A stretch of DNA of 63,941 bases, filler included, from Perkinsus olseni (GCA_013115125.1; 3 parts of 3 records of this genome joined end to end with filler, not necessarily neighbours in it), one strand, 5' to 3'; counted from the whole stretch's first letter, positions 3,201 through 48,759 are shown. The notes: generated from the sequence alone by a model not told the origin. A program made the numbers and translations.

Positions 3201-6200
3201 AAACGCTTCGGAAGTTCTTATTAGCGTCCGAGGGCCCCAGCCTTGCCATTCGAGACGCCTTGTAGACTCTCGAATCCTTCAAACTACAGAGTGATGGTGC
3301 AGCGTGAGAGGCGTTAGTTCAAAGCTACTGTCGAAATCGGCGTGGGGTCGTGCTGGCCGAATTATACGATAGGAAATCCTCACGGCGCGCGTGGCCGTCA
3401 TGTCCGAGAGCTTGCGGACTTCTCCTCCGCGGACTAAAAACGTATCCTTCCGCAATACCCCTCCTAATGGCGGTCGGACGACTAGAAAGTCAGATCGGAA
3501 AAATCGAACTTACGAAACCGGCGTTGGGTTGTTGAATTGCAACCGGCTGTAGTTCTCCAGCTGCACTGAGAAACTGATGTCATCCGATATGTGCCAATGA
3601 AGGACATTCATCTGAACGCGGATGAGCAAAGACGTCAGCTCTCGCGAGAAATTACCGCTTGGAGATCTGTGTTGGTGAGTGAAGATTAAGAATTTGGAAG
3701 GCAGTGAAGGGTAAACTGGCTCGGAAAATTAGGCCCCGGTCAGCATTCAAGAAACTGATTCTAGCGCCGTATTTCACACGGGAAACTGATTTCAGAAAGA
3801 ATCGTTTGCCAACTTCAGAGCGCTGAGTTTCTAGAACAGGCGACAAGGTAGTCAAGGATGTATCATCCTGATAGAGAGTCTCCAGTTAAGTGACGGGCGA
3901 AATTATTATTACAATGGAGATGACAGAAGCTTTCCTCATACGTCGTGTCGTACATGGTACGACGCCACGTCGCTCGGTGCAAGGGCCGCCGGCTGTCACG
4001 CCAATTTTACACAATAGTGGCCGTCGGAACCCTCATAGAACCTCTGCACTTTTCTACTTAACCACTGGGCGAAGTAGAATAGATTAGTCGGAAAATAAAA
4101 GGCCGATAAACAGAGGACTCATAGGGAATACAATAGCTATGAGACAGGAGCGTTACAACAACTTTGTGATAGGAGCAGCAGGATATTCTATCCTGGCACG
4201 GACCCTTGATGATAGGGGCAGTTTACAGCAACTTAAATGAATTTTGTGATAGGAGAGGGCCACACCTAGCTGTATTCCCCTCACACCTCACCTTGACCCA
4301 AGCCATTGTGTGAAGATTCTTCTTGATCAGGTCCACGGGAAGATACCTCCGCCCAGTGTCGATGAGCATCCCTCTGTGAGGGAAGGAAGGGTAATCGGTG
4401 ATGTTGAAGCCCGTGTTTATGATCGAGGTCAGACCGTCTGCGTGATTGTGCGAGATTTGAAACTGATGGAAAAATAGGAAATCGACCCCGCTCGTCCGAG
4501 AGAGAAACAGCGGAATCTTCTGCTATTCCCGTATCGAATTTAATCGAAATAGTCTCCGCGAGATCGCAATGAGAAACTGCAGGAGGCGGAGTCAAAACTC
4601 ACCGCTGTGAGCATGCCGTAGAAGAAGCCGCTTCTGCTGCTGAACTTGAGATGGCAAAGCTGTGGAGTGCAGGTGAACTCGTATGCTTCATCCAGCAGAC
4701 CAACATCATATTCTACACTCACCGCCACTGGGTGAGAGGGTGCTGAGGGCACAGCACAGTTGAGCTCTATCACGCATCGACAGATTGGCTGAGTGGTTAA
4801 GGCTACTAACGCTAATTCACAAGGGCGTAGGATCGAACCCAACGCCTGTCATAAACATCTCCGTGGCTTAATGCCTGGGATAACCCCCACGAAAGAACTC
4901 AACCTACTTGATATTTGCATTCCGTGGACGAAGTTGTTGAGAACGAAGTCCAAATCCTCTTGAACAACTGGGCCCCCATTGGCCTGCAGCTTGAATGCAA
5001 AACAACTACCATAATCATCCCCGGTCTCTGAGACAAACGCGAATACCCGAGGACTGGCGAGATTGTGATGCGCCCTCGGTAGCTCCGGAAAAGCAACCAC
5101 AGAAGCTCCGCTGCGCTCGGTAAGGCCAGGGGGATGGTGAACTTTCACGGAAGAGAAGGTAACTTATCACATCAACAACAGAAATTGTATAAGTATAGAT
5201 AATAATGATAATAATTTATAGTTCAGCCCAAGTTTCGTCCAGCCTCCTCACTGTTTGCTTTTGTGGCAGTGTGATGGTTGAATCTCATTGAGTTTCATTC
5301 TTTTTGAGACTCTGACCGGCTTTTATGCCGTGCGTCCGACAGTATAGTTAGAATAGTTGGTGATATTAGCTATAGTATAACATAATAGTCTAATAGATAA
5401 TAATAGCACTAAAAATAGTTGACTGTAGGTTTAACAGCTAGATAAAAGCTAGTTTAAAGCGAAGAACGATACATAAATAATAGAATGATAATTATACCCA
5501 ATATTTCCTTATTCATAAAATTAGATTATGAATATTACTCAAGATTAGCATCTTTGGTATGATGGTACACGCCTCGTCATCTCAATAAGTACTCAATATT
5601 CTATACTGAATAATACCACCAATTATCACGATACTAATATATCAAGATAGTGCCGGTAGGCACAACTCTTTGTTTTTCCGACTCTTTCTTGTATGAGGCC
5701 CACCATTAAAAATTTGCTAAAAAAACGAAAAAAATAAATAGCAGTAGCTGGAGCAAGCGACGGAGGACTGGCGACTGAGACGTTGACCGCGAGGATGGAG
5801 GAAGACGCAGAAGAAGTCGGTCGAAGCCTTAGAGCAGGAAGACGTGATAATCAAGTCATGTATTGCTCGTCATTAAGGACAGTTTCGAACGGATATATCA
5901 TAAAGCATACTAAACGAACATATAAAGTATAATGAATAACCTATTAATACTATATAATAACCTCTACGTTACTCGACGTCTTTCCAACGCCGTTCACTGT
6001 TATCGACTTCGGAACTGGCCAGATCATCAAGGGTGGCTGTGGAGGCGTGGCAGCTGCGTTTCCATATCCCGCGACACTCGGGCACCTAAAGTTCATGTCA
6101 ATTGCCGGCAGGCACAATTCCTCCGGAAAGAACTCAGAAGGTGGCAACTCGGAGATACCGATCAGATCACTCGATTCAGCGCGAAAGGTCCAAGGTTCAA

Positions 6201-6266
6201 ATCCCCCGTCGGGCTTACATGGCGAGCAGACATAACGTCGCGGCAGTTGCCGCATGACCTGGAGTC
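218..6266 (-). CDS. Beta-N-acetylhexosaminidase (glycoside hydrolase family 20), multi-exon; 5' start uncertain, 3' end probably runs off the left edge
   Basis: Hand-spliced GT-AG exons give GH20 motifs in order: LMIWPVPKSITV (about 6030); DEAYEFTC...GFFYGMLT (about 4700-4600); DYPSFPHRGMLIDTGRRYLPV...MAWVK (4437-4292); MNVLHWHISDDISFS (3611-3514); YTADEVKEVVEYA...VIPEMDVPAHT (3179-3072); MDPISERTSKMAVDVISEVVELF (about 2550-2465); catalytic VHLGGDEV (from 1844); VILWND; GGEACMWG; ESVDASVFMPRVWLRAAAIAERLW (350-218). Phases are compatible across the catalytic domain. Confidence 0.93.
4779..4851 (+). pseudogene. Degenerate tRNA (Ser/Leu-like) inside a GH20 intron, antisense to the host gene
   Basis: GACAGATTGGCTGAGTGGTTAAGGC...GGCGTAGGATCGAACCCAACGCCTGTCA: A-box-like D arm, partly paired acceptor stem (GACAG/CTGTC), damaged T arm, collapsed anticodon arm. 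Confidence 0.7.
5801..5888. repeat. Dispersed repeat fragment, second copy at about 46383-46470
   Basis: gaagacgcaga...gaagccttagagcagg...catgtattgct...ttaaggacagtttcga is present in both places, about 12 differences in 88 nt by eye, mostly transitions. Confidence 0.8.
6185..6215 (+). pseudogene. tRNA 3'-half relic (Lys-like T arm/B-box) overlapping a GH20 intron donor
   Basis: AAGGTCCAAGGTTCAAATCCCCCGTCGGGCT; on the minus strand the intron 6218-6086 begins GTAAGCCCGACGGGGGATTTGAACC. Confidence 0.6.
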
Positions 6267-6644
6267 CTGCGAGTGACCATTAGGAACCCCCAGGCAACTG
6301 AGCGGACCGCAGGAGATACTTTTCTCAGTCGACAAGCCACCTCAACGTGGCAATGATTCCACTTGAGGCACTCGCGTAACGCAAACAGAATCTCACGGCA
6401 TCACCAACGTTGTGAATGGGGGACAAGAAATCGCATCATGCGAAGTCATCCACAGCGTGACTCGGTAAGAGCTTGGGAACTTCTCCCGAGTCTGAAGACA
6501 TAAGTGGGCGCTCTAGGAGCAACATTCTTCGGCTTGATGAACAGAGCCTAGTCAACAGGCTGAACTGGCCCCCCAAAAAGAACGTCGGTGCTAGTTTAAC
6601 TAGGTCGTACTATCAGCGTTAGAGTTCGAACTCACACACACCAG

Positions 6645-6673
6645 AGGGCGCAGGTTCGATCCCGGCGTCGTTG
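6645..6673 (+). pseudogene. tRNA 3'-half relic (Ser-like T arm/B-box)
   Basis: GGGCGCAGGTTCGATCCCGGCGTCGTTG; exact GGTTCRANNCC, no intact D or anticodon arm upstream. Confidence 0.55.
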
Positions 6674-7176
6674 AGTTCACTCAGTAGATCGTCAAATGTC
6701 TTCTCCATGCGCGTTCAATAAACCCCACCGCTCGTGAATAATCTAAGGATCTCTCTATCAAGGAATCACTCCTAGTGCTTGACTAGGAAGATCGCATAAA
6801 TTGTGGTAATGGGAGGAATAGACGACTCCCGCATGAGTGCTCGCGCCTGATGACTCCTATCATCATGAAAAAATGGAAATTGATCAATTTAACCGCCCGG
6901 TCGTTGAAACTTTCTCGACGAACAAATCGCATCAAACATTCGGCCGATGTTTCATTCACGGTCCTCACGTAGTATAGCGCTCTCGAACACGGTGGGCCAA
7001 CGTGAGGCCCACCGTCGTTTCCGACGGTTGCGACCGTGGGTGACATACTTCCGGCTCTACCACGGCGGCTTTGGCGTAGTAGGTAGCGCGTAGGTCTCAT
7101 AATAACACGGCGTCTTTCACATTGAGAAAGTTGACGAGTTCCTCTCCAATATATCGGACATAGGAAGCGTCATGAA

Positions 7177-7258
7177 TGTCAGCTGTGGGATTCGAACCCA
7201 CGAGGATCTCTCCGCCAGAACTTGAGTCTGGCGCCTTAGACCGCTCGGCCAAACTGAC
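7177..7258 (-). tRNA. tRNA-Leu(CAA), intronless
   Basis: GTCAGTTTGGCCGAGCGGTCTAAGGCG CCAGA-CT-CAA-GT-TCTGG, long variable arm, GTGGGTTCGAATCCCAC AGCTGACA; full cloverleaf. Confidence 0.95.
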
Positions 7259-7857
7259 TCCGAGAAATCTGTATATATGACACTATCCAGCAGACCGTTT
7301 GTGTTGGGGGAGATGTACGACGGATGCAGAAGACCGGAAAGATGAGTAGAGCATTACAATTCACCCTCTCAGCTATCGAGAAGCGAAATCTTGTCGACCC
7401 AATATTCCGCAATAGACCGAAATGAATAACCGATGTCGGACGCCACTAGGGATCGTCTCGGATCCAAAAAGTAGAGCCCAGTAAGATCTCCCGCCATACA
7501 AAACCCACAGTCATTCCAGCCGAGGCATCGACAATGCCGCGTTGCGCCGGGTATCTGCAGTTGGAGCCCTCCGGAACAGTACACGCCCAAATTGGACGCC
7601 CCACAAATTTCCTTTTTCAATGACCTGAAACCACCGCCGACGAGGAGTCGTTACGTGTTGGTTGAGTGCAGCAACTCCACTCGACGAGCACCATGATACC
7701 ACCCGCACGCATACACAAGCGCGGCAGCAAGTTGAATGGGCGTGTGTGTACGCATGTACATGGCAAGAGTATCAGCATATTGCCCGACAGTCGATCGTTT
7801 TCGAAAGCATTATTAGGGGTGGGCGGCGAGATCGGGATGCTTCCAACGTTCATCACC

Positions 7858-7937
7858 GACAGTTTGGCCGAGTGGTCCAAGGCGCTGGCTTTAGGCGCCA
7901 GTCCGAAAGGGCGTGGGTTCGAACCTCACAGTTGTCA
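7858..7937 (+). tRNA. tRNA-Leu(TAG)
   Basis: GACAGTTTGGCCGAGTGGTCCAAGGCG CTGGC-TT-TAG-GC-GCCAG TCCGAAAGGGC GTGGGTTCGAACCTCAC AGTTGTCA; full cloverleaf with some G-U pairs. Confidence 0.9.
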
Positions 7938-8079
7938 TTTGCGTCGGTCGATGAATCCAATTTTTCTTCTAGGTTTGACCTAGGTAGTCATAATCTTGAT
8001 TATCAGCAGCCTCTCGGACAACTGGAAGACTCACGCAACCTCTCAAGGCTTTCACAACATCATCCACGTTCCAGTTGCA

Positions 8080-8647
8080 TCATGCGGACTCATTCGGCGC
8101 TTCTCTTGACGAGGGCTCGAGAGAGGAACCTGAGAAGGCCTCAACGATCGCACCATCAACCCCCGTACGAGGCAGGGAGTTCACCTGGCCTCTCCTTGGG
8201 TGCGACCGGTATGTCCATCGCCGCCGCTCTGTATGCATCCGCATACACTCTTCGCTGGAGGGCCAGCGCAAGAATCATCAGCAATAACGAAATGCCGATT
8301 CCGAGCGAGAAGGCCACTAACACTCTACCTGCCGAAGGGAAACACAATCGTTACCATAAACGGAACCTTCACGAGATGGTAGAAACTGAGCGGAGCGATG
8401 CGATTTTCCACCAGTTCTTCGCGAGATCGCTCGCTCCTGTCCATGAGAGGTTTCCTCTAAGAGAGCGACTGCATTGATCTCGTCGACGGCGACATCCAGG
8501 AACTACGAACAGAAACATCCAGCGCCATTTCGCGCGCGACTTAATTCAACTTACTCTGACGAAGCGCGTTCTCAAACTGGCAGCCTCGCAGGGCTGGAGA
8601 TCAAAAAAGAAGAGTGAGAGCAGAATTATCGGGCGGAAAATGGACAT
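8080..8647 (-). CDS. Small type-I membrane protein, 4 exons
   Basis: Spliced: MSIFRPIILLSLFFFDLQPCEAASLRTRFVR|FLDVAVDE...FLPSRE|GRVLVAFSLGIGISLLLMILALALQRR...|GSSLEPSSREAPNESA*. Signal peptide, one TM helix, canonical GT-AG introns. Confidence 0.75.
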
Positions 8648-8961
8648 GCAGAAAGGTAATGGCTAGATCAAGGCGCAGCATCTTAGGTTGAACCGCGGAA
8701 GATACAAAATAGGTCGTATCGGCGGGGTTCAACTCAACACATCCCTTCCCTAAACCGCCAACTTCATACATGTTACACATAAATTCAACTTCAGATCCTC
8801 AGACCTAAAACCAGCACGACCCTTGCGAAACAGCAAGCGGGTGTAAAGTCATGAAATTTTACGATGGGCATGACAAATCGCGCTCGCCATGTTGATCGAT
8901 TTGTCTACCTCGGCCCATCCTGCGTTGTATTCAGATTCACCAGCAAAAGCCTCCTACCTTG

Positions 8962-11879
8962 TCAACAGTCATCTACGAAGAGCGCACGTCTCGGCATGTC
9001 GGCCGACTCGGTCGCAACTCGATTGAATTGGCCCTGAGCAAAATTCGACAACCGTCGCCAACACTGCATGTATTGCTGCCATGTCGACGATACGATCAGC
9101 TGTTCACGCCCGCATAACATTTCGCGCGCCACGAAATTACTCACCTTCACAGAGCCGGCTCTTTTACGGGGCAACCATGGCGGGGACGAGACCTCCTTCG
9201 GTCTCTTTGGTGGCGTCGAGTATCCTTCATCTACAAAGCGAAAAAAGGCACTTGGACCAAGCACGAAGTTCTTCTCTGAAAAATAAAAAAAATTTTTTAC
9301 AACAATGATCTATTGTTGCATGCTTGGATGTATCAAGTCTATTGCGTTCTTCGGGTAAAATATAGGTAGGTAGCCCCAACGAGCGAGTAAACGACACCAA
9401 CAGCGATAATTCACTAAATCGTTCTGTTTCTCCACAATGAAGGTGAGAAATCACGCGGGAACATTGAACGCGTGATTCTGATAAAATCATCTCATACCAT
9501 CGACGGTAGTGGTTAATCAAACTCTTCAAAAAACCAAAGATTTCCGGAAAAAAACGCCAACTTGAAGTTACATTCTCTTTACCTATGGCAGTATTCTCAG
9601 ACCGACAAGGGAGTCTGGTCGTCACAAATCAGCTGGAAATAAATTCATCAGTCGAATTTATTTCCAGAAAATCGCAAATCACAGCCACCCTGAGCATACC
9701 TGTGATAACCCCCTGCTCTCGCGGAAGTGCTCGATGTGTTGAACATGATCGATTCTGAAACAGAAATGCCCAGGTAATTTCGAACTGAAGTGTGACAAGC
9801 CCAAGCGCCCCGTCGAACGATATAACCGAAAACGTCAACAGTCGAAACAAAAAAACTAGGGCGCTCGCTTTTTACATACACACGGTGAACTGCTCACAAC
9901 GATCGCTTCGAAAAGGGCTACTTCGTCAGTCGGCCCCTCTCCGATGCTTGCATTCCGTGCCGACCCACGACGGCTCCTCGGGCTCCTGGGCGTTGATGGT
10001 CGGAACTCGAGACCGCTGAAGACACCAGCAAATGCAGACACCAACTGCGCGGCTCTCCCGCGAGCTATGCCGCCGCTCGGGAACGCTCCCGACCTCCTTT
10101 CCAAACGTCTCATGTAAGGCAACTGTTCGAGTTTATCCCACCGAGGAAGTAATTTGAAAAAAATTCGAATGCTTTTCGTTGAGATCACGCTTTTGGAAGA
10201 AACGTGACCAAGATGGCGGTATCGCTGAGGAACCGCCAGACCCCTCCATCGCCCCACCGAATCCTCGCTAGACCTCGGAAGATCGAGAGCGAGTAGAAGC
10301 TAGGCCGACCAGAGCTAGCCCAGCAAGGTGAACGCTCTTCGAAGATTCTCACTCAGTTGTGGGCGGAGAATCATTGGTTAGACCGTGAAGGGTCGAAAGA
10401 GCATTTCACCGCTACGCCCTGCGAACTCTTTCACCCGAGGAAGGAAAATTCTTTTTTCGCCAACTGAGCATTTTTCTACAAAATGGGGAGAATAACGAAT
10501 GACGAATGAGTCAAACGAGTCGCCATTTTCCGAGTTTCTGTGAAATCGGCGTCACCCACCGAGCGCACCCTTTTCGAAGCTTCTTGGGAGGGGAGGCCAT
10601 GACGTGAAGGAAAAACCCGTCTAAAGGCAACCCAGTTGCACCGCTTATTATCTTCATTTCCATCACATCCGATCACTTCGATCCACCAGTTCCATCGTAG
10701 GTGTTATTTTTCTCATTGGCATTGCTACGTAGCCCCTCGTTAAACCATACCAAATTTTTCACAACTTCCCCGGAAATGCCTCATGCCGTGTTTCCATTTT
10801 CAATCAAAATTTAGAGCATTCCGATCCTGAGGAATAACACCTACTTGACCCGCTATACAACCACACGAGATGAATCGGAAGATTCCTCGGAAAGAGTAAC
10901 CAGAGAACTCAGAATTCGAGTTGCAATTCACGCTAGGTTGCCAGCACGCTCGCTTCAAATCCAACAAAGCCGGGGGCGGCGTTGGTTAGATTGTATTCAA
11001 TTTACAGTTTCAATTTATCGCTATATAATGATACAGGATATATCAACATTGAGGTCCCTGCGGAAAGAGACATCAGAGGTTTCAGAATTCGCGCTGCGAG
11101 CCCTTTCCCAACGCAACCAGCCAATCGGCATCAACACAGCTGCATGGCGACGCTTGTGACGATCAAAGGATCTCCCCATCATGAAATAAACGATTCTGGA
11201 TGAACCTATCCCATCAGGATACGACGAAAGAATTTCGTGACGCGTGACGAATTGGCGCCGGTTGAGCTTACCTCGATGACTAGTCCAGCTACTGGCTTTC
11301 AAACTAACCTTGACCGGCTGATGTATCAGGCTGCTGGGCCACTTCACGCCGAGCCTTATACTGAAACAACAATAGATCCCGGGTTCGAATCCCAGCGAAA
11401 ACACTTCTTCCAACCCTTGGCTGTCGGCGTGGAACCGCTGCTGGGACGCCCTCTTCAGCAGGCAACGACACCGAGTGGTCCACGAAGGGCGACGTCTGCA
11501 GCGTTGATGCTGATGCCGATGGACCTGATACCAAAAGATACCATTCCTGATACCATGACGTCGCGAAAAGATTTTTGATGGCGAAGCTGCGCCCGAATAC
11601 GCGGTGAGTGTCGTCGAACCTCCGCGGCAAAAGTAACGGTTTCAGTTACACAGAGAGCATCTACTACGAAGAAAACTCCCCCAAAGAAAAAAGGCGAAAG
11701 AATCGTGGAGTAGGTAAGTCCCGTGCATCAGATCTCTTTTTCGACTAACCTGAATCTCGTCTCGCAATAGAGACACTCGCCGCCGCAGCAGGAGGGTCAG
11801 CAGGGGCGGTAGAACTGGCTGACTCGGCTGGTGCCTCGATACGACTCTGACACCACACGTACCATCAATAGGGTGCATC
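8962..11879 (-). CDS. Hypothetical low-complexity protein, multi-exon
   Basis: Exons bounded by GT/AG: MHPID|ASSTAPADPP...|GPSASAST...PRRQPR|YKARREVAQQPD...; later DEGYSTPPKRPKEVSSPPWLPRKRAGSVK|CWRRLS...VDDC*. Middle exons are not fully resolved. Confidence 0.5.
11374..11403 (+). pseudogene. tRNA-Val-like 3'-half relic filling most of a 54-nt intron (11414-11361), antisense
   Basis: AGATCCCGGGTTCGAATCCCAGCGAAAACA; intron on minus strand: GTTGGAAGAAG-TGTTTTCGCTGGGATTCGAACCCGGGATCT-ATTGTTGTTTCAG. Confidence 0.65.
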
Positions 11880-12530
11880 AAGTAATCTCAGACTCTTTTC
11901 CAAAAATATGGTATCAATAAGTGATGACAAAATAAAAGTCCCTCCGTGAACATGCTGCGATATACGTGGACTGGTACATGATAAAAACCCTACCAAAACA
12001 ACTGCCTGATATGCGGGTCGGCCGAAGAGTCTCCAAATCCACTCGTATGAGAATCGACGAATTAATCAAACGTAGTTGCGCTCAAGCGCGCTAATATTGG
12101 TGTTAGTGAATGCCTTGATCGGTGTAGTTTAGAACAGATAGAATCTCGGGATTCAACCAAGATTATGCGAAGATCCCTGAGCGCGTCAATCGGAGTAGCG
12201 GCGGAATGGGAGTGTGAAACGTTGCTAGGTTAGTGATGGTCTTACTAGGGCCGTATCGTTTAAATATCAGAGCGAAACTCGGCTTCTTCGATGAATTATG
12301 AGTAGCGTGCCATGTATGTTAACAATTTGTGGAGTGGTGTATTGTGCGTACAAATTAGTCAGGCAGAATCGGGAAACTGCGATATTATAAGGCCTGAATC
12401 TTGAAACCGAAAAGTCTTACAATGCCACGCCCTTGAACCCAGACAAGCATATACTAGCACATAAGAGTCGACGGCGTTCAAGAGTCTCCCAAGGAACTCC
12501 TACGCAGTATTATTATCAAATTGCGAACAC

Positions 12531-13528
12531 CTATCGAAGAAGAGGCATCCTCCTGTCCGTGGTACTCACATTGGTGGTGGCGGTGGAGCTAGCAGGCTGT
12601 CTCAACGCCGTGGTCGCGTTCATAACTCCCCGGACTCTCTTACTCGAGGCAGAGGCTCCGTTCAAAGTTCGCTGGGCTCGAGCAGGACGACTAAGGAGGA
12701 GAAAAATTAATGACACCCACCCAACCTGATGAATACACGCCTTGAACGCCAAACCAATCCACCCGCGAGAAACCAAGCGAGGCTTATCTGGCACCCAGTT
12801 TTGTAAAGCAGGCCATTTAGCATAGTCAGCAGCGTGTGGGATTCCTCCGCAACTCCCCTAATTCCTGTGTGAAACTCTGAGCGAGTTGACAACGTCAAAC
12901 TCGGGGATCGATGGTGGCGAGTGTCCCGCCATAAAGTTTACAGTTGGACAGTTCACAGTACAAACTTCACAGTCCACCGTTGGCCCGGCTCGAGCAGCCT
13001 CCCAACGGTGTGCTGATTTCTCCATAGCTTTATGCGAAGGTCGATGTCCAAGGACCTTCGCATGTCTAGGCACAAGCTTGCTAAGAAACTTGGCAGAAAA
13101 TTCGGCAAAATATTTCAGAAAATTTCCCTTCGAGTTTTTACATTTATCTCCCCCACCAACTTACGCTTCGAAAAAGTTATACCAAACCGCAAGAGCAGCC
13201 GCCGAGACAACGAGTGCGCCGGAAAAGATCAGCAGAGGGACTCGATGGCCGCCAGGGGCCGCTGCCGGGGACGCGGTGGTCGCCGATGCTGCTGCTGTTG
13301 TCGCAGCTGCGGTGGATCTGAAACGAAAGGGGTGGTAAGCCGACACGAGATTTCGCCTGATTGATGATTTTCCTTAAAGATGCGCTGAGGGGATCCAAGG
13401 TCGACCCTGGCATTTCACGAAACACGTTCGCAATATCGCTTGACCGTTAGGAGTGGTCTTTCACTCACTCTGTTGAAGCTTCCGCAGTAGTCGCCGCGGG
13501 AGGCGTTGTGGAGACGGTAGGGGCAGCC

Positions 13529-13595
<67 letters not shown>

Positions 13596-14438
13596 CGGCG
13601 GCGGGCGCTGTTGTCTGTGGTGATGCTGTAGACACCGGAGAGGCGGCAGCAACTGAGGAAGACGTTCTTGGGAAGCTCTAGAGAATACCGACTAGAGAAT
13701 ACCGACTATACAGTACTCTCGTACTCTCAGTACTCTCGGGCGAACGAACCACCTTGGGTTACTCGGAGCCACACAAACGACGCGCTCACAGCGAACGAAC
13801 GTGGGCAACACTCAGCCGGTCTCGAGCTGAAATTCACGATTGTGAACGAGGAAAAAAACGAAATTTTTTACGAAGGTGCGGCGGTCGGCTTCCAGAGGAG
13901 ACCTGCTAGAGGGAAGGGGACTCACCAGTAGTTGGAACAGCGGCTGTGGTTTGAGCAGGAGCAGCCGGAGCCTCTGTGGTTTGAGCAGAAGCTGCTGTTG
14001 TCGATGTGGCATTGGGAGTGACAGTACTCGTCGTAGATGCACTAGCAGTAGTCGAAGAGGATGCCGTAGTGGAGGGCGGAGGGGACGGCGCTGCACCTAA
14101 CGGGTGGTCAGTGAAGTAATTCTAGAACCCGCTTTTACGCGAGTTTCAGAATAAGGGGGTGCTAAACTAACCTAGTTTGAAACGCAGACTCGATTTTAAG
14201 ATCGCATTTCACATGTAAAAATCAGGGGTGTAGTTCGGACTGAGGTTCAGTCACTGAACTAGAGGTAAATGATCACCAAATGCAGCGGAGCGAAGCACTC
14301 ACTCAAAAGAGCATGAGTCATCATGAGGTTGGCGTTATTGGACCGTTCGATGGTGATGGCGGCAGCGGTGGTGATGTGGAAGACGATGATGAACAGCAGT
14401 TTAGGGGGCCCGAGAAGGCGACGAAGTCGTATTAACAT
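12531..14438 (-). CDS. Mucin-like (Thr/Ala/Ser/Pro-rich) type-I membrane protein
   Basis: MLIRLRRLLGPPKLLFIIVFHITTAAA signal-like start; exons at about 14096-13927 and 13652-13469 are S/T/A/P-rich with poly-Thr; TM LLIFSGALVVSAAALAVWY (about 13235-13180); tail ends ...RRMPLLR* at 12531. Confidence 0.75.
13529..13594. repeat. (GTA)22 microsatellite encoding a poly-Thr tract on the minus strand
   Basis: Perfect trinucleotide run inside the mucin exon, read as ACT codons. Confidence 0.95.
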
Positions 14439-14547
14439 TAGGTGAGTTGGAAAGAATGTTGGCTGAAACACCGAGGGGTCCTTGGTTCGATACTACCGCA
14501 GCACATTCTTCATACAAACGACCCGGGTTCGATTCCCACAGCCCCCA
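14439..14547 (+). pseudogene. Two tandem tRNA relics (Phe/Val-like 14439-14505; T-arm only 14516-14547) in a 153-bp intergenic gap
   Basis: TAGGTGAGTTGGAAAGAATGTTGGCTGAAACACCGAGGGGTCCTTGGTTCGATACTACCGCAGCACA and GACCCGGGTTCGATTCCCACAGCCCCCA. Confidence 0.6.
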
Positions 14548-14591
14548 AAACACAACAACAATCTGCAAAGAACACCAAGAGCATGATTATC

Positions 14592-16050
14592 TCATTTATT
14601 CGAGTCCGCCAGGCTGATGTCAGCCAGCTTGCCCTTCCCGCTGTTCCGGCGACGCTCTTTACGACGCGCCTGAGGACGAACGAGCATCCCGCGTACACCA
14701 CACAAACCACAAAGCTGCGATGAGAATAGAATGTTATCAATATTCAGAATGGTCGTAGATCACAACGTCCGAGGAGAGGAGACAGGGGTTACTAATCAGT
14801 ACGAGAATGAACTTACTCTGCGACTCTGTCCAGCTGCCTCTTTCGGCTGTCCTTCCTCAATATCAACTTCAACATCTTCCGGGCCTCCCTCGATCTCGAT
14901 AACTTCGGGCTCTGGCTCATCCTTCTCTTCAGCACTGAATCAACCATAACATGTCTTTCGCACAGCGAAGATTCCGTCGGAGTGACTGTTCGCAGCTTCC
15001 TCATTCTCCCCTCCAAAAATTTTCGTATGAGGAGCTCAGCTTCCATAGAGGAAGCGTGGCTAAGAGCCACTCCTGCAGCCTCTATCTCTAATATTTATAT
15101 ACTTTCGTTCGAAATAGTTCGAATAGTTCGAGCGCGGCATCATTGAATTCTAACGATAAAAGCCTCGTGCAAAATCCCGATCTCACTTCATAACGGTCGG
15201 CGTTTCACCAACCAGGGGAGTCTCATCAACACTCGCCACCTCTCCTTCCGGTTTGTCCAGGATAACCGTTTTCGTCAAAAATCCGATCGCCAGAAGTATC
15301 AGCAAGGAGCCCGTGGTGACGTAGATGATGTTGATAGCTGAAGCAACGAAATATTAATAACAATAATCGAGTCCTGAGGGCGCTTTTTTGGAGTGATAGT
15401 AATCAGTCAACCCTCGTCATCCCAACTGAGGCCGAAGAGGAATGCAGCGAAGAGTAAATGGCGACTACATTCACATTTACCATTTAAGTAAATGGCGTAT
15501 AAAACGTTATGCTGGTGACACGAAACAGGCTATCTAGATTGCGCATACTGTAGCTCTAGTCAGCAGGCAAATCGGCAGTTCCAATCAGCCCTAGTTTCGA
15601 AGAATATATTCTGGAAGCGCACTCTGTACGACCAATCAGAAGGCACTCCACCGATGCCTCGTGCTACGAGCGGAACCAATGCAGCTTACTCTTGCTGGGC
15701 CCTCGTTTGGCGTCATGACTCTGATGACCTCCTAAAGGAAGAGTTTATGGAGCATCCTCGCGACTTCCTACTTTCGCCGACTGCAAAGAAGCTGCCTTCA
15801 GCGGCCTCTTGGCTGAAAGCCGTTGTAGGAGTTCGGGAGCCCAGCTCAAACATCTGAGAAAAGGCCCCCAAAAGGCTGCCCACCTGTCGAACCCAGGTGG
15901 GTTCGACCCCCGCCGGGACTATCATTGTCCCATTTTTACCTTCTGGACCAACTGGCCCGTCCCTAGCATCGCATCATCTACCTCCGTTTTCACTCCGCCA
16001 ACAATATATAATATTAGACACACTGCCGCTGTTGCCCGCCGGGACAGCAT
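14592..16050 (-). CDS. Type-I membrane protein with acidic cytoplasmic tail, multi-exon
   Basis: MLSRRATAAVCLILYIVGGVKTE|MFELGSRT...; TM INIIYVTTGSLLILLAIGFL (about 15338-15278); EEKDEPEPEVIEIEGG...|ARRKERRR...DSNK*. Confidence 0.6.
15895..15921 (+). pseudogene. tRNA-Ile-like T-arm/3' relic in intron 1 of the 14592-16050 gene, antisense
   Basis: AGGTGGGTTCGACCCCCGCCGGGACTA, preceded by an inverted partial copy (CCCACCTGTCGAACC). Confidence 0.55.
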
Positions 16051-16334
16051 CTCCGAAATATAGTAATTGCTAACATCCACACCGAGTCCCCAAGATGCGC
16101 TCACGCAGCCGAAAGATTCTCCATGGACTCCCTTTATGAAAACACGACACACAAAAATCAGAGGAAACCATCCATCAGTATCTTGCGTGAGGCATGGAGG
16201 TCGGAGATAATAGAATCCTTGATACGCATGATGCGTGCAATAATACCGTCACAAAAACTGCATAGGACTACCACGTGAATTAAGCAATCAGTAATTTACA
16301 ATAAACCATAATACTTTCTCATCGCTCCGCCACC

Positions 16335-19300
16335 TCACGCGCGAGGCCCTCTAGAAGACGAGCTAGACGACGAGGACGAAGACGAGGTGTCAGAATCGTT
16401 CAATATACCGCTTGTATACCTGCCAATCACCGAGCATGTGAGATTCCTCCACTCAACGCTGAGAATCGAAGATGGCCTAACCCGCTTGCCTCGCGGAATT
16501 CCTGATAGCCAAAAGCATGCCTCAGTTCGAAACTCAGACAAACCGTCGAGATTTGCTGAATATTCTCGACGAATATGAGAAGAACCGTTCGTAGAGAATC
16601 CTATCCCGCTCCATGCGCTCTGTACTCACCTTGCCCTCAGCTCCCCATCAACCGACGACAGCGCTCCAACAGCGACATAAGATACCATATATTTTAAATT
16701 TTGTGGCGCGCGACGGAGAATTTGCCTCAATTCTCTCAAAATGTACTGCGCCAAGGCCAGAGGTAAATTGGTTGCATTTACCTGATAATGACTCCCATGC
16801 TTGCTAGTAGTACCAAATACCGGCCTACTCGACCGTTTCCCGCCCTCGGTACGAAAGCGAAGGGCTGGCCCTTGGGCGGGCGAAGCTGGCGCTTCTGCTC
16901 GGACGTGAAGTTATTCATGAACATCGAATGGAGCTCTTGGACGACCGCAACTGCAAGAACGCCGCATTGTAAGGCAATGACAAAGCAGCGAGCTGACAAC
17001 CCCGTGAATACAGAAGACGGACTAACCGGACCAATATCCCGAGGCTGTTCATTCTATGGAGCAGATACGCCGATTGACGATGATAATTAAGATAGATATT
17101 GATAAAAAATATTTTATAATATAATAATAACTAACGACCATACCGACCCGACAGACGCTGCCTGTTCTATTCTCGGTGGTACTTGGATCGGTTCGGACCC
17201 GGTTCCAGCGGCAGCGTTTTACACAACTCCACATCGCAGTGGTGCATCCACCCACCCAATTGCTCTTTGCTCATCTTCAACAGCGTCCTCTCATCCACCA
17301 CAACTGATTGCCGAGCCATTTCTTGAAATACCTAAGATGCGCTCGGGTATCTTCATTCACCGCACTCGCAAGAATCCACGATCAGCGACAGCAAATCGCT
17401 CACCTCCAGGCTTAAGTTTCGAATATCTTCCCGCGTTAGCCTCCTCACAGGAATCCATGCCAAATCCTTTTTCTTTGAAGGAGTCATCAGCTTCTTGCTT
17501 ATAAGGAACTGTACGAACAAGTAGTACATCCTAACCTCCCCCGCATCTTGCCATAATCAACCTTAGATACCACATCCGTATAAGCACAAGCCACTTTCAG
17601 ACACCTCTAGCTACACCACGACTCACATTGATGAATTTGTCCGCCCTCTCCAGCACGTCATTCGGGATGACTTTACGACTGACCGGATGCAGTAGAGGCC
17701 GGGGCTGCCGCAAGAACTGCTGCAGACTGCCCGAATCAAAACCTAGGGCGGAAGAATCTAGCATTTATCAGAATCGCTCCCTCCCGACCTCGAACGTATC
17801 TTCCATCCTCGAGGTATGAAAAAAGATATTTCACTTCATTAGAAGGCACTCGTCTTCCGGTAGAATCTTCAGTCCAAATTTGTTGCTGTATAAAACAGAG
17901 GAGCGAGAGTATCTTTAGGTTACCATGGTGCTACATGATTACCAAAGATATTAAATCGATAGGATCGTGAACTAAACATGGATTGCCAAAAGCTGGACCA
18001 CTGAGCTCCCGAAGTCTCCTCTCAAATCGATCATCTAATCGATTTGTATGGAAACCAGCCGATAAGCCACACCCAGCTTCACTTTCTTCAGTCCCCCTAG
18101 TCCGTTCCAACCGACGACGCGCCGCCTGGGAAGAGAAACAAAATCCTCGCTAGGAATCGAACCCGGCTCGTTCGTGCTAAAATCGCGTCTGCCAACCATC
18201 TCGAGTACTCGGTTCCTCCTCTTCCTTATGGCCCGGTTTCGAATCCCAACAGTTGCCGCAGTCTGCTGCTGCTGCTGCTGTTCGTTGTGTTGGCTAGGGC
18301 CTGCCCAAGGATTCCACTGCACGCCCAGGACGAATATTGAAGACAAAATTTGTAAGCAGCAAGATAGTTTACAAAATATCCCCGACGGAGCTCATTTGAT
18401 GACACCGTGCTAGAACTTCTCGCCTAGAAGCATCGGACGTAGCGCTGAAGTTGAATACTCCGACGGATGATTATGATTATGAGGTATCAACTGCCACTAC
18501 TCGAACGACAAAGGCCATTGCGCGCCAATACGTGGACGCGGAAGTAAATATTTTTCGTCAGGAGGGAAATACGAAAATTTGAGAGGATTTAAAATCTGCA
18601 GAGCAGGTGGCATCGTCAACGAAGTTCAGGTGCAGGGCGAACCGAGATCGAATGATGTGTCGCTTCTTGAGGTCTACCATTCACGCCTATGATCAGGAAT
18701 ACGAGTGCGGCGACGACCTTCCTACACGTCACTACTATAGAAAATCATTGAGGGCGTTCAAGAGATCGCTGACCCTTCTGGGTTCCATGAGCGCTCTCAC
18801 GATTCAATTAAACGCATAGAAGACGACCCCGAGAGCGCTCGGGAATTGAACACACGGACTTCTCTTCCGCATAACAGATGACAAGATGAAGAAGACTTTC
18901 CCAGCACCCATCAATCGTCGTCCTACAAGTGCGGATGCGCGCAAACAACTACTGGAAGCAGCAGAGGAGTACACGCAAAATATATCAGTGAGGTGGCTCA
19001 GAGACTATGCGCTTTCGATCGCTCTCTAGGCTAGCGTTCCGATGAGACTGTTGATGCCCAGACTCAATGCCTAGCCGACACGTGACTTGGTTGCAGCGAA
19101 GCTAAGGACTTCGGCCAACACGATGCCGAGTTCGGCGAATAAAGGGAGCGCGCCAGTATTCCGCAAGGACTCACCTCCCGCCGATCTCGAATAGGAAGCC
19201 TCCGTTGAACTGAGAGGATGATCGGGTCGAAGGCCGCGAGAGTCGAGCGTCTCCTACCGCAGCCCAGACTGCCCAGTTCCTTGGGATGGACTTCCCCTCT

Positions 19301-19900
19301 TGAAGCGGTGCATACCTGATAAAATGGTGCCGCGAAAGAAAACTAACAGCACGACGCGACGCACGGCTTTGGAATGTCATGCAACCTAGTTCGGAGAAAA
19401 AGGCACGCTGAATATGGGATGAATCGCTGGCAACAATAATGCAGCAGACGCCAGACCGAAATACGGCGAAATACACCGACCGCCAGAAATACGATATACC
19501 GAAATACGCCAGACCGAAATACCGGGCGGCGTTGCGTTGTCAACTAGTCGGTCTGTGACATTGAACACAGTAATAGCTTTGCGACTTATCGGATGATAAA
19601 GCGTTGTACTGTGGCCGATAATATCACAGTAGTTGCGGAAGTCTGTAAATCTGACGAGTCGGCCAGGGCATGGCCACCTAAGTTCCACGTTCCTCACACA
19701 AAACCAGATTCGCGAAAACAGCAAAGGAAGCCAGTCTCGGAGCGGACCACTCCTACCTCTGTTGGAGTTATGATGAGCAGTGGCTGCAGGAGGAGAGGAA
19801 CGCATGAGGAATATGCAGTAGTGTGAATTCTCTGCGGCGACCTGCGGCGAGGAAGATCGCAGTAATCGATCATACGGGCGAGCGCTATGTTTGCGCGCTG
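16335..19900 (-). CDS. Multi-exon hypothetical protein whose C-terminal region (about 240 aa) resembles conserved giant-virus (Nucleocytoviricota) hypothetical proteins; 5' end uncertain
   Basis: Eight phase-compatible GT-AG exons (18034-17943, 17885-17789, 17742-17627, 17508-17404, 17331-17256, 16950-16829, 16745-16630, 16419-16335) give one open frame. The family resemblance is from recalled motif pattern only. Confidence 0.7.
18143..18257. pseudogene. Two oppositely oriented tRNA T-arm relics within a probable intron
   Basis: Minus 18170-18143 CGAGCCGGGTTCGATTCCTAGCGAGGAT; plus 18230-18257 GGCCCGGTTTCGAATCCCAACAGTTGCC (Leu-like end). Confidence 0.5.
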
Positions 19901-20563
19901 ATTTTCACGGTTACAGCGCACTTAAAGATCTCGGCGCCAGCAGGTTAGGTTGGAGCAAGCATGTCCTTCTATTCATGTGCTGCTTGGGGGCGCCGTTAGG
20001 CTGGCTGAGGCCATTGATAAACGTTTTACTTGTGATTCGTATAATCTACTTGACGTGGATAATTCCGTTCCCACTCTAGAAAAGTTCTTGACGCCGTTGG
20101 GTTATGGTTGAACGCCTCACTAGTGTCTCGTATAGCCTTGCAAATCAGGCGGGTACTATCTAGTTCCCAATCGGGAAACATCCTCAGATGCCAAGTATCA
20201 CACTCATGCGTCTGCGCGAGACTTTCTCATGCCGCGCGACGCCGTTTGGATTTTGTATCAGAAGGAGTTGTTTGCTTATACCGGTTCGCACGTTCCGTCT
20301 TGCCGGCCGGGCGGTACACGAGACATAACTCAGAATGGCATCAATTTCTACACGTGAAGATGGTGCTGAATTGATTGTGAGTTTCAGAATTGGTTCGTCG
20401 AGAACGAATTAAGGAGAGTGGGTGGGAAATTTTGGTGGTAAACTCATCAGGAGTATCTTTTTTATATATGAAGTCCCCTCATGCAGTTCGGCTTGCCAGC
20501 CCTTCTTCGGCTGTCGTATTAGCGAGGACCAGTCGTAGGGACAGGGGGCCCGGGTCGAAGGAG

Positions 20564-22700
20564 ATGGAGTTGGTCCAGACGATCGGCGTTTTGTGGGGAG
20601 AAGTTAAGAAACGGTAATAAAGGAGGGAATTCTCCGCACTGCGAGCAGTGTCGATCAGAAAGATATTATACAAGCATAGCAGAGTACTGACGTCGTTCTC
20701 GAAGCTTCGGCGAGGTGGAAAGCCCAGTCATCTTGGGGCAGCGAATATAGTGATAAAAATCGGTTGGATGTTTTTCACTCGGCACTTTTCTGGAGTTCTC
20801 TTACTCATCAGAGGTCAGTCGTAGCTGCCCTGCTCTTGCCACGCTAATTGGTAGGAGGGAGCGGCATTCCAAAGATGTATCTAGGTTGATTTAGGCATGA
20901 TATGAGTAGAATGGTTCTCGTGTCGTATTTTGTGCTATCTTTTCTGGAAGTCTTGGATAATTTTCTTCATTTGCGGAGCTTTTCGTTTGTTGCTTGAAAC
21001 GCCTGTCGCACGACCTCGACGTTCAGAAGTTCGCATCGTTTGCCGACCATTCAGGGACGCGGCTTTGAAGGGCGCAACGAAAGAAGTCACCGCGCTTAGG
21101 AAGGAGAACAAACGTTTGCGGCGAATTGCAGCTAAACAGCAAGTGCGAGTTCAGGATGGAGGCAGTGATTTCCATCTGCTCGATCCAAAAACCCCCCGAA
21201 TTCCAGTCTCGTCGATCAGCCGTAGTCGATCACTACCAAGAGTTTTATGTTGGAGTTTCGCCCGTGATGTGAAAATCACTAGTGAAAAACACATTCACGA
21301 TCGTATTACGATCGTAAAAATGAATACTTTATATTTTACCTCCAAATTATGTATAATTTTCTCTATTATTTTTTGATAGATTTCGTATTTGTTATATTAT
21401 GACGACATGTGTATATTCTATGTCGTTTCATGATTCCATCAATTGTTAGAATATTTATATTTCTATATCTCTATTTTTTGGAATCCTTGTGAATGCAGGA
21501 GATTCAGGAGCCTTTGAGGGACTCGATATCACCGGTCCTTGATAGAGGACAACTTATGGAGGGAAATGCTACCTGAAGGTGGACTGGAACGAGCTGCTTT
21601 CGATGAGCCTCTCTGGATGAGGGAGGCGCAATAGTTTTCTGTCTGAGAAAAAGGATTGTCGAAATTATGTCGATCAGGCATGCTATCAAAAACCTGAATC
21701 AAAATGGTAAAATCCCTACCTTCATATCATGTTCGGAGATGTTGAGTATTTTCCGGTGATGCGTCAGCGAGGTTCTTGGCAGTTTTTGCTCTCAGAATTG
21801 CCACTCGAGGCTGATGCATGAGGGAGAGTCTGTTGTACGGTGTGAAGTTTGCAAGGATAAATGTAGTACTGGATGTGGCTTGGCTGAGGCGAGTAGGGAG
21901 GGGGCATGATAACTGGCCTCTTCGAAGTGCAGGTGGCCAACTTAGTTCCGAATTAGATATGCAGCTTAGTTTCAAGTTGAAACTATAAATCATCATTCGG
22001 AAGATTGTTAAGTGGAGCTTTAATGATTCTCGAAGAAAGTCAGTATCGATCTATTGAGTCATCGTAGCTCGCACTGGTATGGTGCTGTTGTTCACGGACC
22101 GGTTGGGCGTGGTTCGGCTTTGTACCGTAGCGGCTAAGTTCTTGGGTGTTTCGGAGAAATTTCGGTGACGAAAATAGAATAGGTTATGCGTTGCTGTTAT
22201 GCATAGCAAGGCGCTGTTGTTATGCATATGTTCTCTCGTGGTGCTACCGAGGATCGAACCTGGGTGTTTCGGTAGGGATGGATGATCAGCAACGTGCTAG
22301 ACTAATTGAAGCCGAGGATACTATAGCTAGTTTGAAGCTGACTATCGGTTACTTGGAGCGAGAAAACGCGTAAGCAGGGCCCAGTACCGCGACCTAGTAT
22401 TCTGTTCATCGAGAGAATAATCTGCACTTGGAAATTAAACTGGTTATGGAGCACCTTTGTGATAGGAAGCTGCATTCGGAGTTGGAGAAGAATCATAGGT
22501 TGAAGATGGTCAGTGATGAGTCCTGCGGATCCGCTGTCCGGAAGGAAGCTGGGTGAGGTTATTTTGAGCGGAGCGATGCGGTAGTGCATATATGTCAGAG
22601 TACGCCGAGAGGTTATAGATGAGCTACTAGAGAGGTTGGACAGTGCTTGTGACAAAATAAAAGATACGTCTTATGCTGAAAACGGGTAATACTCTCGATT
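20564..22700 (+). CDS. Hypothetical coiled-coil protein, multi-exon, boundaries approximate
   Basis: GT/AG-bounded exons: DAALKGATKEVTALRKENKRLRRIAAKQQ; MDDQQRARLIEAEDTIASLKLTIGYLERENA|KLHSELEKNHRLKM; VRREVIDELLERLD. Confidence 0.5.
22239..22270 (-). pseudogene. tRNA-Val(TAC)-like 3' relic abutting an intron acceptor, antisense to the host gene
   Basis: Minus strand GAAACACCCAGGTTCGATCCTCGGTAGCACCA; plus strand continues ...GTTTCGGTAG|GGATGGAT. Confidence 0.5.
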
Positions 22701-33863: not shown

Positions 33864-34914
33864 CGGCGGGACTGACTTACTCAAGCGATAATAACCGCTC
33901 GCGTGAAGGTGGTGGCCGTAGGCAAACTTAGCGTTAGATCTCGCACGATATTCTCGTTCTCTCACTCCCGTCGGAGTGTCATCGACAAAAGGTCTAAGGT
34001 TTGCCTCCGTATCTTGTTAAAGAATTTCATTATGTGACTCTCGTATTGTGTTTGACGTGTGTTCCTGACTCAGGAATCCTGAGCCGAGGTTCGATCCCGG
34101 GCGACCCGCCTGGATGTCATCCACGCTCATTGAGCGTCGACGGGTATTTCGGAAATACTATTTCTCCAAAATCCAAGGTAACGTCTTCAGGGAGCGGGTT
34201 GCTTTGGGCAACAGTTCGGGTCCTTCTTGCCTCCACCCAAAATTGAGGCTTTTTCTGTTGCCAAACTAAACATTCTGATTTCAGAGCGTGCGCGGGTAGC
34301 GGTTGCTCTATGTGATCGTAGAAATTCAAGCTAAGTAGGCTAGAGCTTGTATTGCAAAGTAAAGTTTAGGTTAAGTTTTTATTGGTTTGCGGTCGTTTCT
34401 GGTTGGACCATCCTTACGTGAAGTACTATCGTGGCAACCCAAGGCTCGGTGGGCTAGTTATTATCTATCCTTTAGTATTAATTGGTACTATCGACTGGTT
34501 GCGTTAATCTAGTGGGATGAGTGCATTTTCTCGCGACATTGGGCATTGACATGGAAACCCAACAGGGCTCCAAACACCTTTCAAAGGTGACCTTTGCCTG
34601 CCTCTCGCACGCGCTTCCTCGGATTTTGTACTTCACCCGAGCGTCGACATACCACGCTACCAAACTGGCGGCATACGGGAAGAGCGCACTTTGACGGCCA
34701 AGTGAGGTCTGTCAGCCGCAGGCTCCCCTAAAGCCGCTTCCATGGACAGCGGATCGAGCGTGCGAGAGTAGCGAGTGTGAAATCGCAGAGAAGGAGGATG
34801 CGCACCGTGAAGATTCCAACACAACACCGCACGGCGGAAACAGAAATGGTGTTGCGCTGAAGCACTCATGGAACGGAAACCACTACGGAGAGTTCCAACC
34901 ATACAGGTGGACAA

Positions 34915-45690: not shown

Positions 45691-46646
45691 TATTAGTGAG
45701 TGGATAATGAACACCTACAAAAGATGACCAACTACGGTAGGGATATCGCCCATTACAGTTTATGGGTGTCGAAAGGAAAGGGTGTCACTGATATGTTCTG
45801 AGTCAGAACTGTCATCATTTCTCTTGGTATCACGATAGACGTCAGAGAGGTCGTCACCATAGTCAACCTCCTCAAAGATGGACATATGAATTCAACTCCA
45901 ATGCTAGGAAGAAGGGAAGCAACTGAAACACTGAACTATTTCCCTGTCCCGCCCACAATGAACAACGGACAGCCGTCACGGTCACACGTCACACATATTT
46001 GTTCGCGCGCGCACGCACGAATCTCGCTCACCCATTATATCTAACCTCAGGAGACTTAAAGGAAGTTTAGGGTATTTCACTAGAAAACAGGCGTTGGAGG
46101 TTAGGTTCCTCACCTTAAGGAGGCCCCTTAGGGCTCCCAACTTAGGGGGACCTCGATCCTAGATAGGAAGCGTGTTCCCCGAAATGGATATCATCAACTG
46201 CTGATTAAGGAACAAGATTACTCATATGCCGGTTTTGATCCGGCAACCTTGCGGGAGTCGGACTGAGCCACAAACGACGGTGCCATATCGACCACAGGTT
46301 AGATGTTGAGGCACAATGTGCCTGGCACGTGCTACTACGGTAGTAGTACTACCATGATGGTACTCATGCTATCAATAGGTAAGAAGACGCAGAAAAATTC
46401 GGCCGAAGCCTTAGAGCAGGGAAACGTGATAATTAGATCATGTATTGCTTGTGTTTAAGGACAGTTTCGATCTGAGCTATCGATACTATCGATTCGATAG
46501 GTTCTCATCTAGGACTATATTAAAGACCATCTATTCACTATGGACTATAGTAAACAGCTTGTTTCTCATAGACCCCATACCATGAGTATCATTATGATAC
46601 TGTCAGCGGACGTGTCAGGACGTCACGTGAGCGAGGCATTTTCGAG

Positions 46647-48356: not shown

Positions 48357-48436
48357 TGTGTGCTGCGGACTTCGAACCCACGCGGAGCATTTCCGGAAAA
48401 GCTGAGCCACGCTCGTGACCACTCGTGTAAACACTC
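48357..48436 (-). pseudogene. Decayed tandem duplicate of the adjacent tRNA-Leu(TAA)
   Basis: GAGTGTTTACACGAGTGGTCA...CCGCGTGGGTTCGAAGTCCGCAGCACACA aligns end-to-end with 48598-48679; anticodon arm destroyed. Confidence 0.8.
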
Positions 48437-48597
48437 CCGCTTGCACTGCTAGCAGTTGCTCATGTCACATGAATCATGTGGCAGTGCAGGCTCAAAGTTT
48501 AGCTTCGCTCGCCTTGCTCTCTTTTGTTGTCACGGTTGATGAGCAACCTATGAATCGTCGATTGTTTACTGTTCACAATCTGGGAGATACGACCGCC

Positions 48598-48679
48598 TGA
48601 GTGCTGTGGGGTTCGAACCCACGCGGACCGTGTCCAGTGGATCTTAAGTCCACCCCCTTAACCACTCGGGCAAACACTC
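48598..48679 (-). tRNA. tRNA-Leu(TAA)
   Basis: GAGTGTTTGCCCGAGTGGTTAAGGGG GTGGA-CT-TAA-GA-TCCAC TGGACACGGTCCGC GTGGGTTCGAACCCCAC AGCACTCA. Confidence 0.95.
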
Positions 48680-48759
48680 ACGGTGTGATGTGACGGACTG
48701 CGAACGCGTCCGCCCGGCGGATGGGGTGAGCCCGCAAGGCTCGCTCTCGACTTTTGCTA

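Follow-up and report, generated by a model that had tools for sequence, protein, structure and literature searches.

What has left so many lone T-arms, each with the B-box of a transfer RNA (tRNA) gene, in a gene-bearing stretch of the Perkinsus olseni genome that holds only three intact tRNA genes? The stretch analysed here (GCA_013115125.1; 63,941 bases in all, hereafter the window) had been described in a first-pass annotation as a dense array of tRNA 3'-half relics of many isotypes, lying in introns and mostly antisense to the host genes, for which either a selected system of B-boxes bound by TFIIIC or scars of rapid tRNA-gene birth and death were proposed, with tRNA-targeting Dada transposons as a further source. 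The array is real and stems from several kinds of tRNA, not from one repeat family, and the relics are probably ordinary tRNA pseudogenes, left in unconstrained sequence as P. olseni gained and lost tRNA genes at a fast rate. In the literature searched, which had subscription papers and bioRxiv supplements outside its scope, no description of tRNA relics in Perkinsus was found.

The B-box core GGTTCRANNCC occurs 11 times on the two strands of the window, compared with a mean of 1.02 (standard deviation 0.99, largest 5) in 100 dinucleotide-preserving shuffles, none of which reaches 11, and the proposed excess of B-boxes over shuffled sequence is thereby borne out. Counted as sites, the exact cores number 10 where 1.12 are expected, and none of 60 shuffles reaches the observed number. 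Four of the 11 matches are accounted for by the intact tRNA-Leu genes, a palindromic echo included (7188-, 7915-, 48609- and 48610+), and the remaining seven stand alone (6194+, 6653+, 11382+, 14526+, 15900+, 18153- and 34088+). The earlier count by eye of at least six exact lone cores in the first 23.7 kb agrees with the six found there, and a T-arm-like stretch is present at all ten of the relic coordinates first listed. Among the three sites listed as weaker, 34083 has an exact core with weak flanks (4.3 bits) and 46221 a one-mismatch core with a 5-bp stem, while 187-212 received no support from any search made of the window.

The tRNA origin of these sites is seen in what surrounds the core. 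An nhmmer profile and a covariance model, the latter run with its filters off, were both built on an alignment of 28 tRNA genes of Escherichia coli K-12 and the three tRNA-Leu genes of the window. Apart from the intact genes and the echoes of these on the opposite strand, nhmmer returned four matches of at least 8 bits and eight of at least 4 bits, against 0.20 and 1.42 per shuffled window, respectively (60 shuffles). For each of the seven lone exact cores a null was obtained by planting it into shuffled sequence 100 times; five of the native sites exceeded the 95th percentile of their null, and the 13 core-aligned relics still carry C48 in 10, A44 in nine and C72 and A73 in eight cases each, both of which support the derivation from tRNA genes; C40 and C48 match the consensus in 0.8 of the relics. 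Remains of the cloverleaf are clear in the relic at 4779 (24.8 bits) and partial in those at 48357, 18142 and 15830, and the anticodon and acceptor stems of the other relics are at null level. A 5'-half profile applied to the regions upstream of the relics gave matches for 4830 and 18153 only, and nhmmer found nothing elsewhere in these regions.

The relics are heterogeneous as well. When the window was compared with itself by BLAST, the flanks of the relics showed no mutual similarity, the sole relative being 48357-48436 against the adjacent intact tRNA-Leu gene; the mean pairwise identity of the flanks is 0.35, and k-mer sharing among them is no higher than chance in the 64-kb window. Since no flanks, ends or k-mers above chance are shared, the relics do not form one repeat or short interspersed nuclear element (SINE) family, in agreement with the first-pass annotation, and several different source tRNAs would indeed leave copies with no flanks in common. 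The reported absence of an added CCA also holds throughout, no relic having an encoded CCA after position 73. By their scores, too, they are no longer functional tRNA genes, all of them staying below the gathering score of Rfam and the default threshold of ARAGORN. An Rfam search of 35 kb that admitted E values of up to 10 returned the intact tRNAs only, plus a spurious plastid-ycf2 look-alike of tRNA antisense strands, and ARAGORN at lowered thresholds made 56-57 calls, mostly noise, which served as a pointer only.

The three intact genes, identified by both ARAGORN and Rfam, are all tRNA-Leu: tRNA-Leu(CAA) at 7177..7258 on the minus strand (Rfam 55.8 bits), tRNA-Leu(TAG) at 7858..7937 on the plus strand (52 bits) and tRNA-Leu(TAA) at 48597..48680 on the minus strand (57.7 bits). 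With about 13 relics to three intact genes in 64 kb, there are about four relics per live gene, and their decay is graded, the covariance scores descending from 58-67 bits in the intact genes to 24.8 at 4779, 15.0 at 48357, 13.5 at 18142 and 10-13 bits or a T-arm only in the rest. The best preserved relic is a full-length tRNA-Leu/Ser-like pseudogene at 4779..4852 (+), which has kept its acceptor, D-arm and A-box (exact at 4786), has lost its anticodon arm and has a one-mismatch core; its covariance match (4779-4851, E=1e-4) spans model positions 1-74, full length without the anticodon arm. The pseudo-tRNA-Leu at 48357..48436 (-), which is absent from the earlier list, is 73% identical over 86 nucleotides (nt) by BLAST to 48597-48682 and shares its strand with the intact tRNA-Leu(TAA), from which 160 nt separate it; judged by these sequence features, it is a local tandem duplication caught while decaying. 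Near full-length is also the relic at 18142..18214 (-), Ala-like to ARAGORN at the 80% threshold, with an exact core at 18153-18163 and an nhmmer match at 18209-18152 (-; 12.1 bits, profile positions 6-64). A probable full-length relic at 15830..15921 (+), with an exact core at 15900-15910, has five of five T-stem pairs, six of seven acceptor pairs and three of three outer pairs, and is matched by the covariance model at 10.1 bits (E=1.4) and weakly by nhmmer at 15897-15916.

The remaining relics are mostly of 3' type. Two of them follow one another on the plus strand, the one at 14463..14496 with a one-mismatch core at 14484-14494 (nhmmer 3.8 bits at 14463-14490) and, 42 nt after it, the one at 14519..14547 with an exact core at 14526-14536 (nhmmer 11.0 bits at 14519-14546, positions 46-73; covariance match 14476-14547, 12.8 bits). 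The T-arm relic at 11373..11395 (+; exact core 11382-11392) scores 10.9 bits with nhmmer (11373-11394, positions 44-65) and 11.9 bits with the covariance model, which recognises the T-arm only (11374-11395, positions 45-66). At 6639..6674 (+) an exact core (6653-6663) is accompanied by an nhmmer match of 8.1 bits (6639-6664, positions 39-64) and a covariance match of 10.2 bits with large insertions (6542-6674). The 3'-type relic at 6180..6207 (+; exact core 6194-6204) reaches 7.9 bits with nhmmer over the same interval (positions 44-66), where its planted-core null has a mean of 4.9 and a 95th percentile of 7.5. One-mismatch cores mark the 3'-type relics at 18233..18252 (+; core 18236-18246, nhmmer 2.4 bits) and 22241..22262 (-; core 22250-22260, nhmmer 4.4 bits at 22262-22241, positions 51-72). 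Weakest are 34068..34100 (+), whose exact core (34088-34098) comes with an nhmmer score inside its planted-core null (95th percentile 6.4), and the candidate at 46231..46241 (-), where the core has one mismatch, all 5 bp of the stem are paired and neither nhmmer nor the covariance model gave a match. A paralogue comparison across the relic at 34088 found that the duplication stops short of it.

Where the relics lie can be stated for two mapped genes. The gene for a GH20 beta-N-acetylhexosaminidase (1040..6255, -) has 12 exons and 11 GT-AG introns, matches P0004 (Perkinsus olseni FOZ61_010813, 484 aa) at 100% identity and is recognised by Pfam as GH20. P0004 is one of several proteins listed under P. 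olseni that were retrieved with a GH20 exon, and its exact match confirms the species of the window. The relic at 4779..4852 is antisense in its intron 2 (4743-4907, 165 nt), the one at 6180..6207 is antisense within the annotated coding exon 1 (6255-5973), model residues 14-30 being its reverse translation, and the one at 6639 lies about 400 nt upstream of the annotated start. To judge from the sequence, the start codon of GH20 exon 1 may have been over-extended or the relic may have been exonised. The second gene (gene B, 14797..19314, -), located by mapping P0009 (407 aa), has at least 11 exons, and its 5' end may lie past 19314; P0009 maps from 19314 to 14802 with 68-100% identity per exon piece, the first piece having 51% across a gap. 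The relic at 15830..15921 is antisense in an intron of about 220 nt, 18 nt from the splice donor, whereas the intron 19173-18128 holds one relic in sense orientation (18142..18214, ending 14 nt before the 3' splice site) and one antisense (18233..18252). The pair at 14463..14496 and 14519..14547 lies about 250-320 nt past the stop codon of gene B, on the opposite strand. Putative RNA polymerase III terminators after 15900 and 18153 proved to be, in the first case, the complement of the splice donor and, in the second, the polypyrimidine tract of the intron.

Hence, among the ten relics first listed, four are verified as intronic (three antisense, one sense), one lies in an annotated first exon, two lie past a stop codon and three (6639, 11373 and 22241) are without a verified host gene. 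The description 'inside introns' applies to 4779, 15895, 18143 and 18230; it does not apply to 6185, which is exonic by the annotation, or to 14439 and 14516, which are past the stop, and 6645, 11374 and 22239 have no verified host. As introns make up 3764 of the 5216 nt of the GH20 gene (72%), an intronic location is the default expectation. Antisense orientation does predominate; of the nine relics found from 4.7 to 18.3 kb, eight belong to the plus strand, and the mapped genes are on the minus strand. Between 6 and 20 kb the AT skew is positive throughout, which favours minus-strand transcription, and the minus strand is richer in acceptor-like motifs (16 against 5 on the plus strand), donor-like motifs (25 against 10) and exon-like candidates (56 against 21), none of these signs being independent of composition. 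A codon-usage scan for exons was too weak for strand assignment, and protein searches with the candidate exons 14244-14432+ and 14816-15094- gave no matches.

Taken together, these observations are best accommodated by the earlier suggestion of scars of rapid tRNA-gene birth and death, which we adopt for its fit to the graded decay and the tandem pseudo-tRNA-Leu. Birth and death of tRNA genes at the DNA level would yield dead copies from several tRNAs, and these would survive where the sequence is free to decay, that is in introns, gene flanks and intergenic DNA, presumably with no present function. Within a tRNA gene no part varies less or carries more information than the B-box, so that old relics would be noticed only as long as the core survives. 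The excess of antisense relics would most simply reflect the purging of sense-oriented insertions from transcription units, where RNase P and RNase Z would be expected to cut a sense tRNA carried by a pre-mRNA, and local co-oriented duplication may add to the strand bias. In mammals, intronic transposable elements such as Alu and L1 survive preferentially as antisense insertions in transcription units; the two cases are alike in antisense survival and differ in that the units here are tRNA genes, at about ten sites. The relics also resemble known tRNA pseudogenes in their mixed isotypes, graded decay, tandem pseudo-copy by an intact gene, lack of CCA and scores below the thresholds of standard finders, and differ from them in their high density in the window, in that most are T-arm only and in that most are on the strand opposite to the two mapped genes. 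An abundance of tRNA genes is on record for the genus: more than 500 copies of five tRNA types, including 349 of tRNA-Leu-CTT, are given for P. marinus (Kojima and Jurka 2013, PMC3706591), and Gornik et al. 2022 (PMC9550989, Supplementary Table 2) tabulate under 'number of tRNAs detected' 3684 and 3495 in all for P. olseni, compared with 2966 and 2956 for P. marinus. If the relics are plain pseudogenes, the window documents the speed of tRNA-gene birth and death in Perkinsus. It also carries two warnings, namely that automated gene models can swallow relics, as the annotated first exon of GH20 translates one, and that relics read by their B-box falsely suggest selective retention.

The look of a 3' half with an intact B-box is indeed mostly an ascertainment effect. 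About eight relics show the T-arm region only, a lone B-box without a usable A-box, and in ten 3'-type relics the match of conserved columns to the tRNA consensus is close to background upstream of position 39 and reaches 0.6-0.8 at C40, G46, C48 and C72. The A-box pattern is found 29 times against 20.0 expected (8 of 100 shuffles reach 29), and since it matches only 1 of 31 intact tRNAs, where the B-box pattern matches 25 of 31, its lack of enrichment says little. When decay with insertions and deletions (indels) was simulated at d=0.25, the exact core was retained in 28 of 620 planted copies, of which 11 were detected as 3'-only, five as full and two as other and 10 were undetected, making 3'-only the commonest class (11 of the 18 detected). 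Uniform decay with indels, viewed through copies picked by an intact core, thus reproduces the 3'-only look, which marks it as mostly an effect of detection. With the tRNA-Leu genes of the window as sources and a profile built on E. coli only, the ratio of non-core detections to exact cores was 0.25-0.48, in agreement with the observed 2-4 against 7. The claim that the relics are mostly 3' halves without an A-box therefore stands for the look of most of them and falls for 4779, 18143, 48357 and probably 15830-15921, which are full-length.

Several observations nevertheless speak against pure debris. The material is one 64-kb window only, and the sources of the simulations were E. coli tRNAs or the two exact-core tRNA-Leu genes of the window, not the Perkinsus tRNA set; a simulation of decay by substitutions only, superseded by the runs with indels and out-of-model sources, gave few 3'-only matches and did not reproduce the observed pattern. 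Cores with one mismatch (29 against 24.9, standard deviation 5.3) or two (253 against 259.7, standard deviation 14) are without excess in the whole window (60 shuffles), and around the seven lone exact cores no more than 11 of the 21 outer pairs of the T-stem are intact. The null-level anticodon and acceptor stems and the near-background agreement upstream of position 39 likewise favour a specially kept B-box. Six of these seven cores lie in the first 18.2 kb, and the eight of nine relics on the plus strand give a two-sided binomial p=0.039, so that there is more order than pure debris predicts. Furthermore, when core classes and stem pairs are fitted jointly, the likelihood favours separate rates for the core (0.05) and the stem (0.40) over a single rate (statistic 3.89, p=0.049). 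Exact cores beside a half-paired outer stem, mismatched cores that are not in excess, the two-rate preference and the clustering in the first 18 kb together with the strand bias are what would be expected if the B-boxes of former tRNA genes were now selected as TFIIIC-only sites for boundary formation, looping or condensin loading, antisense in the introns of same-strand gene arrays, similar to the extra TFIIIC (ETC) sites of other eukaryotes. There is a precedent in Caenorhabditis elegans, where tRNA-pseudogene-like repeats can be TFIIIC-only sites that are clustered and over-represented in introns, and ETC sites of yeast and human are described as mostly B-box only (Stutzman et al. 2020, PMC6950938). 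The C. elegans sites share with the relics their tRNA-like nature, the B-box, the clustering and the frequent intronic location; they have, however, both an A-box and a B-box and belong to one repeat class (CeRep3), whereas the Perkinsus relics form no family and mostly lack the A-box.

We nonetheless consider an ETC-like origin of the pattern unlikely. The preference for two rates hints at a better kept core, but it is borderline, rests on seven sites and a crude model and is partly reproduced by ascertainment, and a one-rate model with d about 0.20 and about 23 relic loci fits nearly as well. The 3'-only look is explained by detection bias. At 4779, a relic whose detection did not depend on its core, the B-box has fared no better than other parts, differing from tRNA-Leu 7858 at 2 of 11 positions compared with 7 of 30 in the 3' part, and conserved columns are also found as far out as C48 and C72/A73, for which TFIIIC need not be responsible. 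A selected B-box system, as proposed at first, is thus not supported here. It seems rather doubtful that Perkinsus retains lone B-boxes of dead tRNA genes as candidate ETC-like sites, mostly antisense in the introns and flanks of same-strand arrays. If the ETC reading held, high tRNA-gene turnover would feed a chromatin-organising or transcription-insulating system. If true, this would be the first ETC-like system in an alveolate, and B-boxes that were maintained would constitute a dense, sequence-defined set of TFIIIC-only sites that would allow a direct test of how ETC sites originate in dying tRNA genes.

The other explanations fare worse. Chance, that is a motif merely common in the sequence of the window, predicts about one exact core per window and may still account for individual weak sites such as 34088 and 46231, but for the whole set it is refuted by the shuffles, none of which reached the observed count in either series (100 and 60), and by the tRNA-specific signal of the flanks, and its probability is negligible. 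SINE heads derive from tRNAs and carry B-boxes, and 5'-truncated copies are typical of retroposition; yet descent from tRNA-derived SINEs or retroposed tRNA fragments is extremely improbable here, as there is no common body or tail in the window, the flanks are only 35% alike with k-mers not shared above chance, neither a CCA nor a clear A-tail is present and most relics lack the A-box. As for Dada, five families of P. marinus insert into tRNA genes, Dada-tL, -tIA, -tIB, -tG and -tY, and one-ended transposition in zebrafish is described as leaving tRNA fragments next to non-cognate sequence (Kojima and Jurka 2013, PMC3706591). Elements that split tRNA genes and then transpose by one end only, or are lost later, so that single tRNA pieces stay joined to foreign DNA, would suit a member of the same genus, the more so as the targets include tRNA-Leu besides tRNA-Ile, -Gly and -Tyr and the window has three tRNA-Leu genes and Leu-like relics. 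Such scars are nevertheless very unlikely to make up the array. Matching 5' pieces are missing, all profile matches confined to the 5' half being at most 1.6 bits; the sequence adjoining the relics is not shared and has no common ends; and the A-box target known from P. marinus would leave pieces with positions 8-73, not T-arms only. No transposase match was found in the frames scanned with Pfam, a scan in which no Dada protein query was used, and the longest frame of the window is a 402-aa DAO gene. Beside no relic of the window was a transposon body, a 6-7 bp target-site duplication, a paired half or a shared terminus seen. An origin from Dada elements, the third source proposed for the array, or from SINEs is therefore without support in this window.

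Besides the 13 relics, four further stretches are weakly tRNA-like, at 17190-17200 (+), 18831-18910 (-), 53016-53102 (-) and 63626-63647 (+), the signs being a one-mismatch core whose stem is complete, calls made by ARAGORN with its threshold set to 90% and a covariance match of 7.9 bits; none of them is above noise alone. TCAG closes each of the 11 introns of the GH20 gene, whose lengths range from three mini-introns (44, 46 and 51 nt) to 945 nt, and a metagenome scan with the GH20 protein found no relative. The Pfam searches covered 135, 57 and 150 frames (all of at least 40 aa up to about 16 kb, of at least 70 aa up to about 24.5 kb and of at least 110 aa beyond) and matched only GH20, DAO, Arf, C13 and a WRKY19-type finger; among the frames scanned there was no match in 6.3-24 kb. 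The finger belongs to an open frame at 63408-63929 (+) with a match to the WRKY19-type zinc finger at E=2.2e-13.

Other repeated sequence is also found in the window. A 99-nt dispersed repeat with 85% identity occurs at 5801-5899, in intron 1 of the GH20 gene, and at 46383-46481, where the weak relic at 46231 is some 150 nt away. Five duplicated segments, 74-81% identical (33372-33866, 39831-40671, 40926-41477, 41824-42641 and 43707-44347), probably constitute a small tandem gene or repeat family. Paired runs of 44 N, 12 bases apart, stand at 23754-23853 and 47584-47683, and a trinucleotide microsatellite at 13418-13705 (-) has one frame with 22 Tyr codons in a row.

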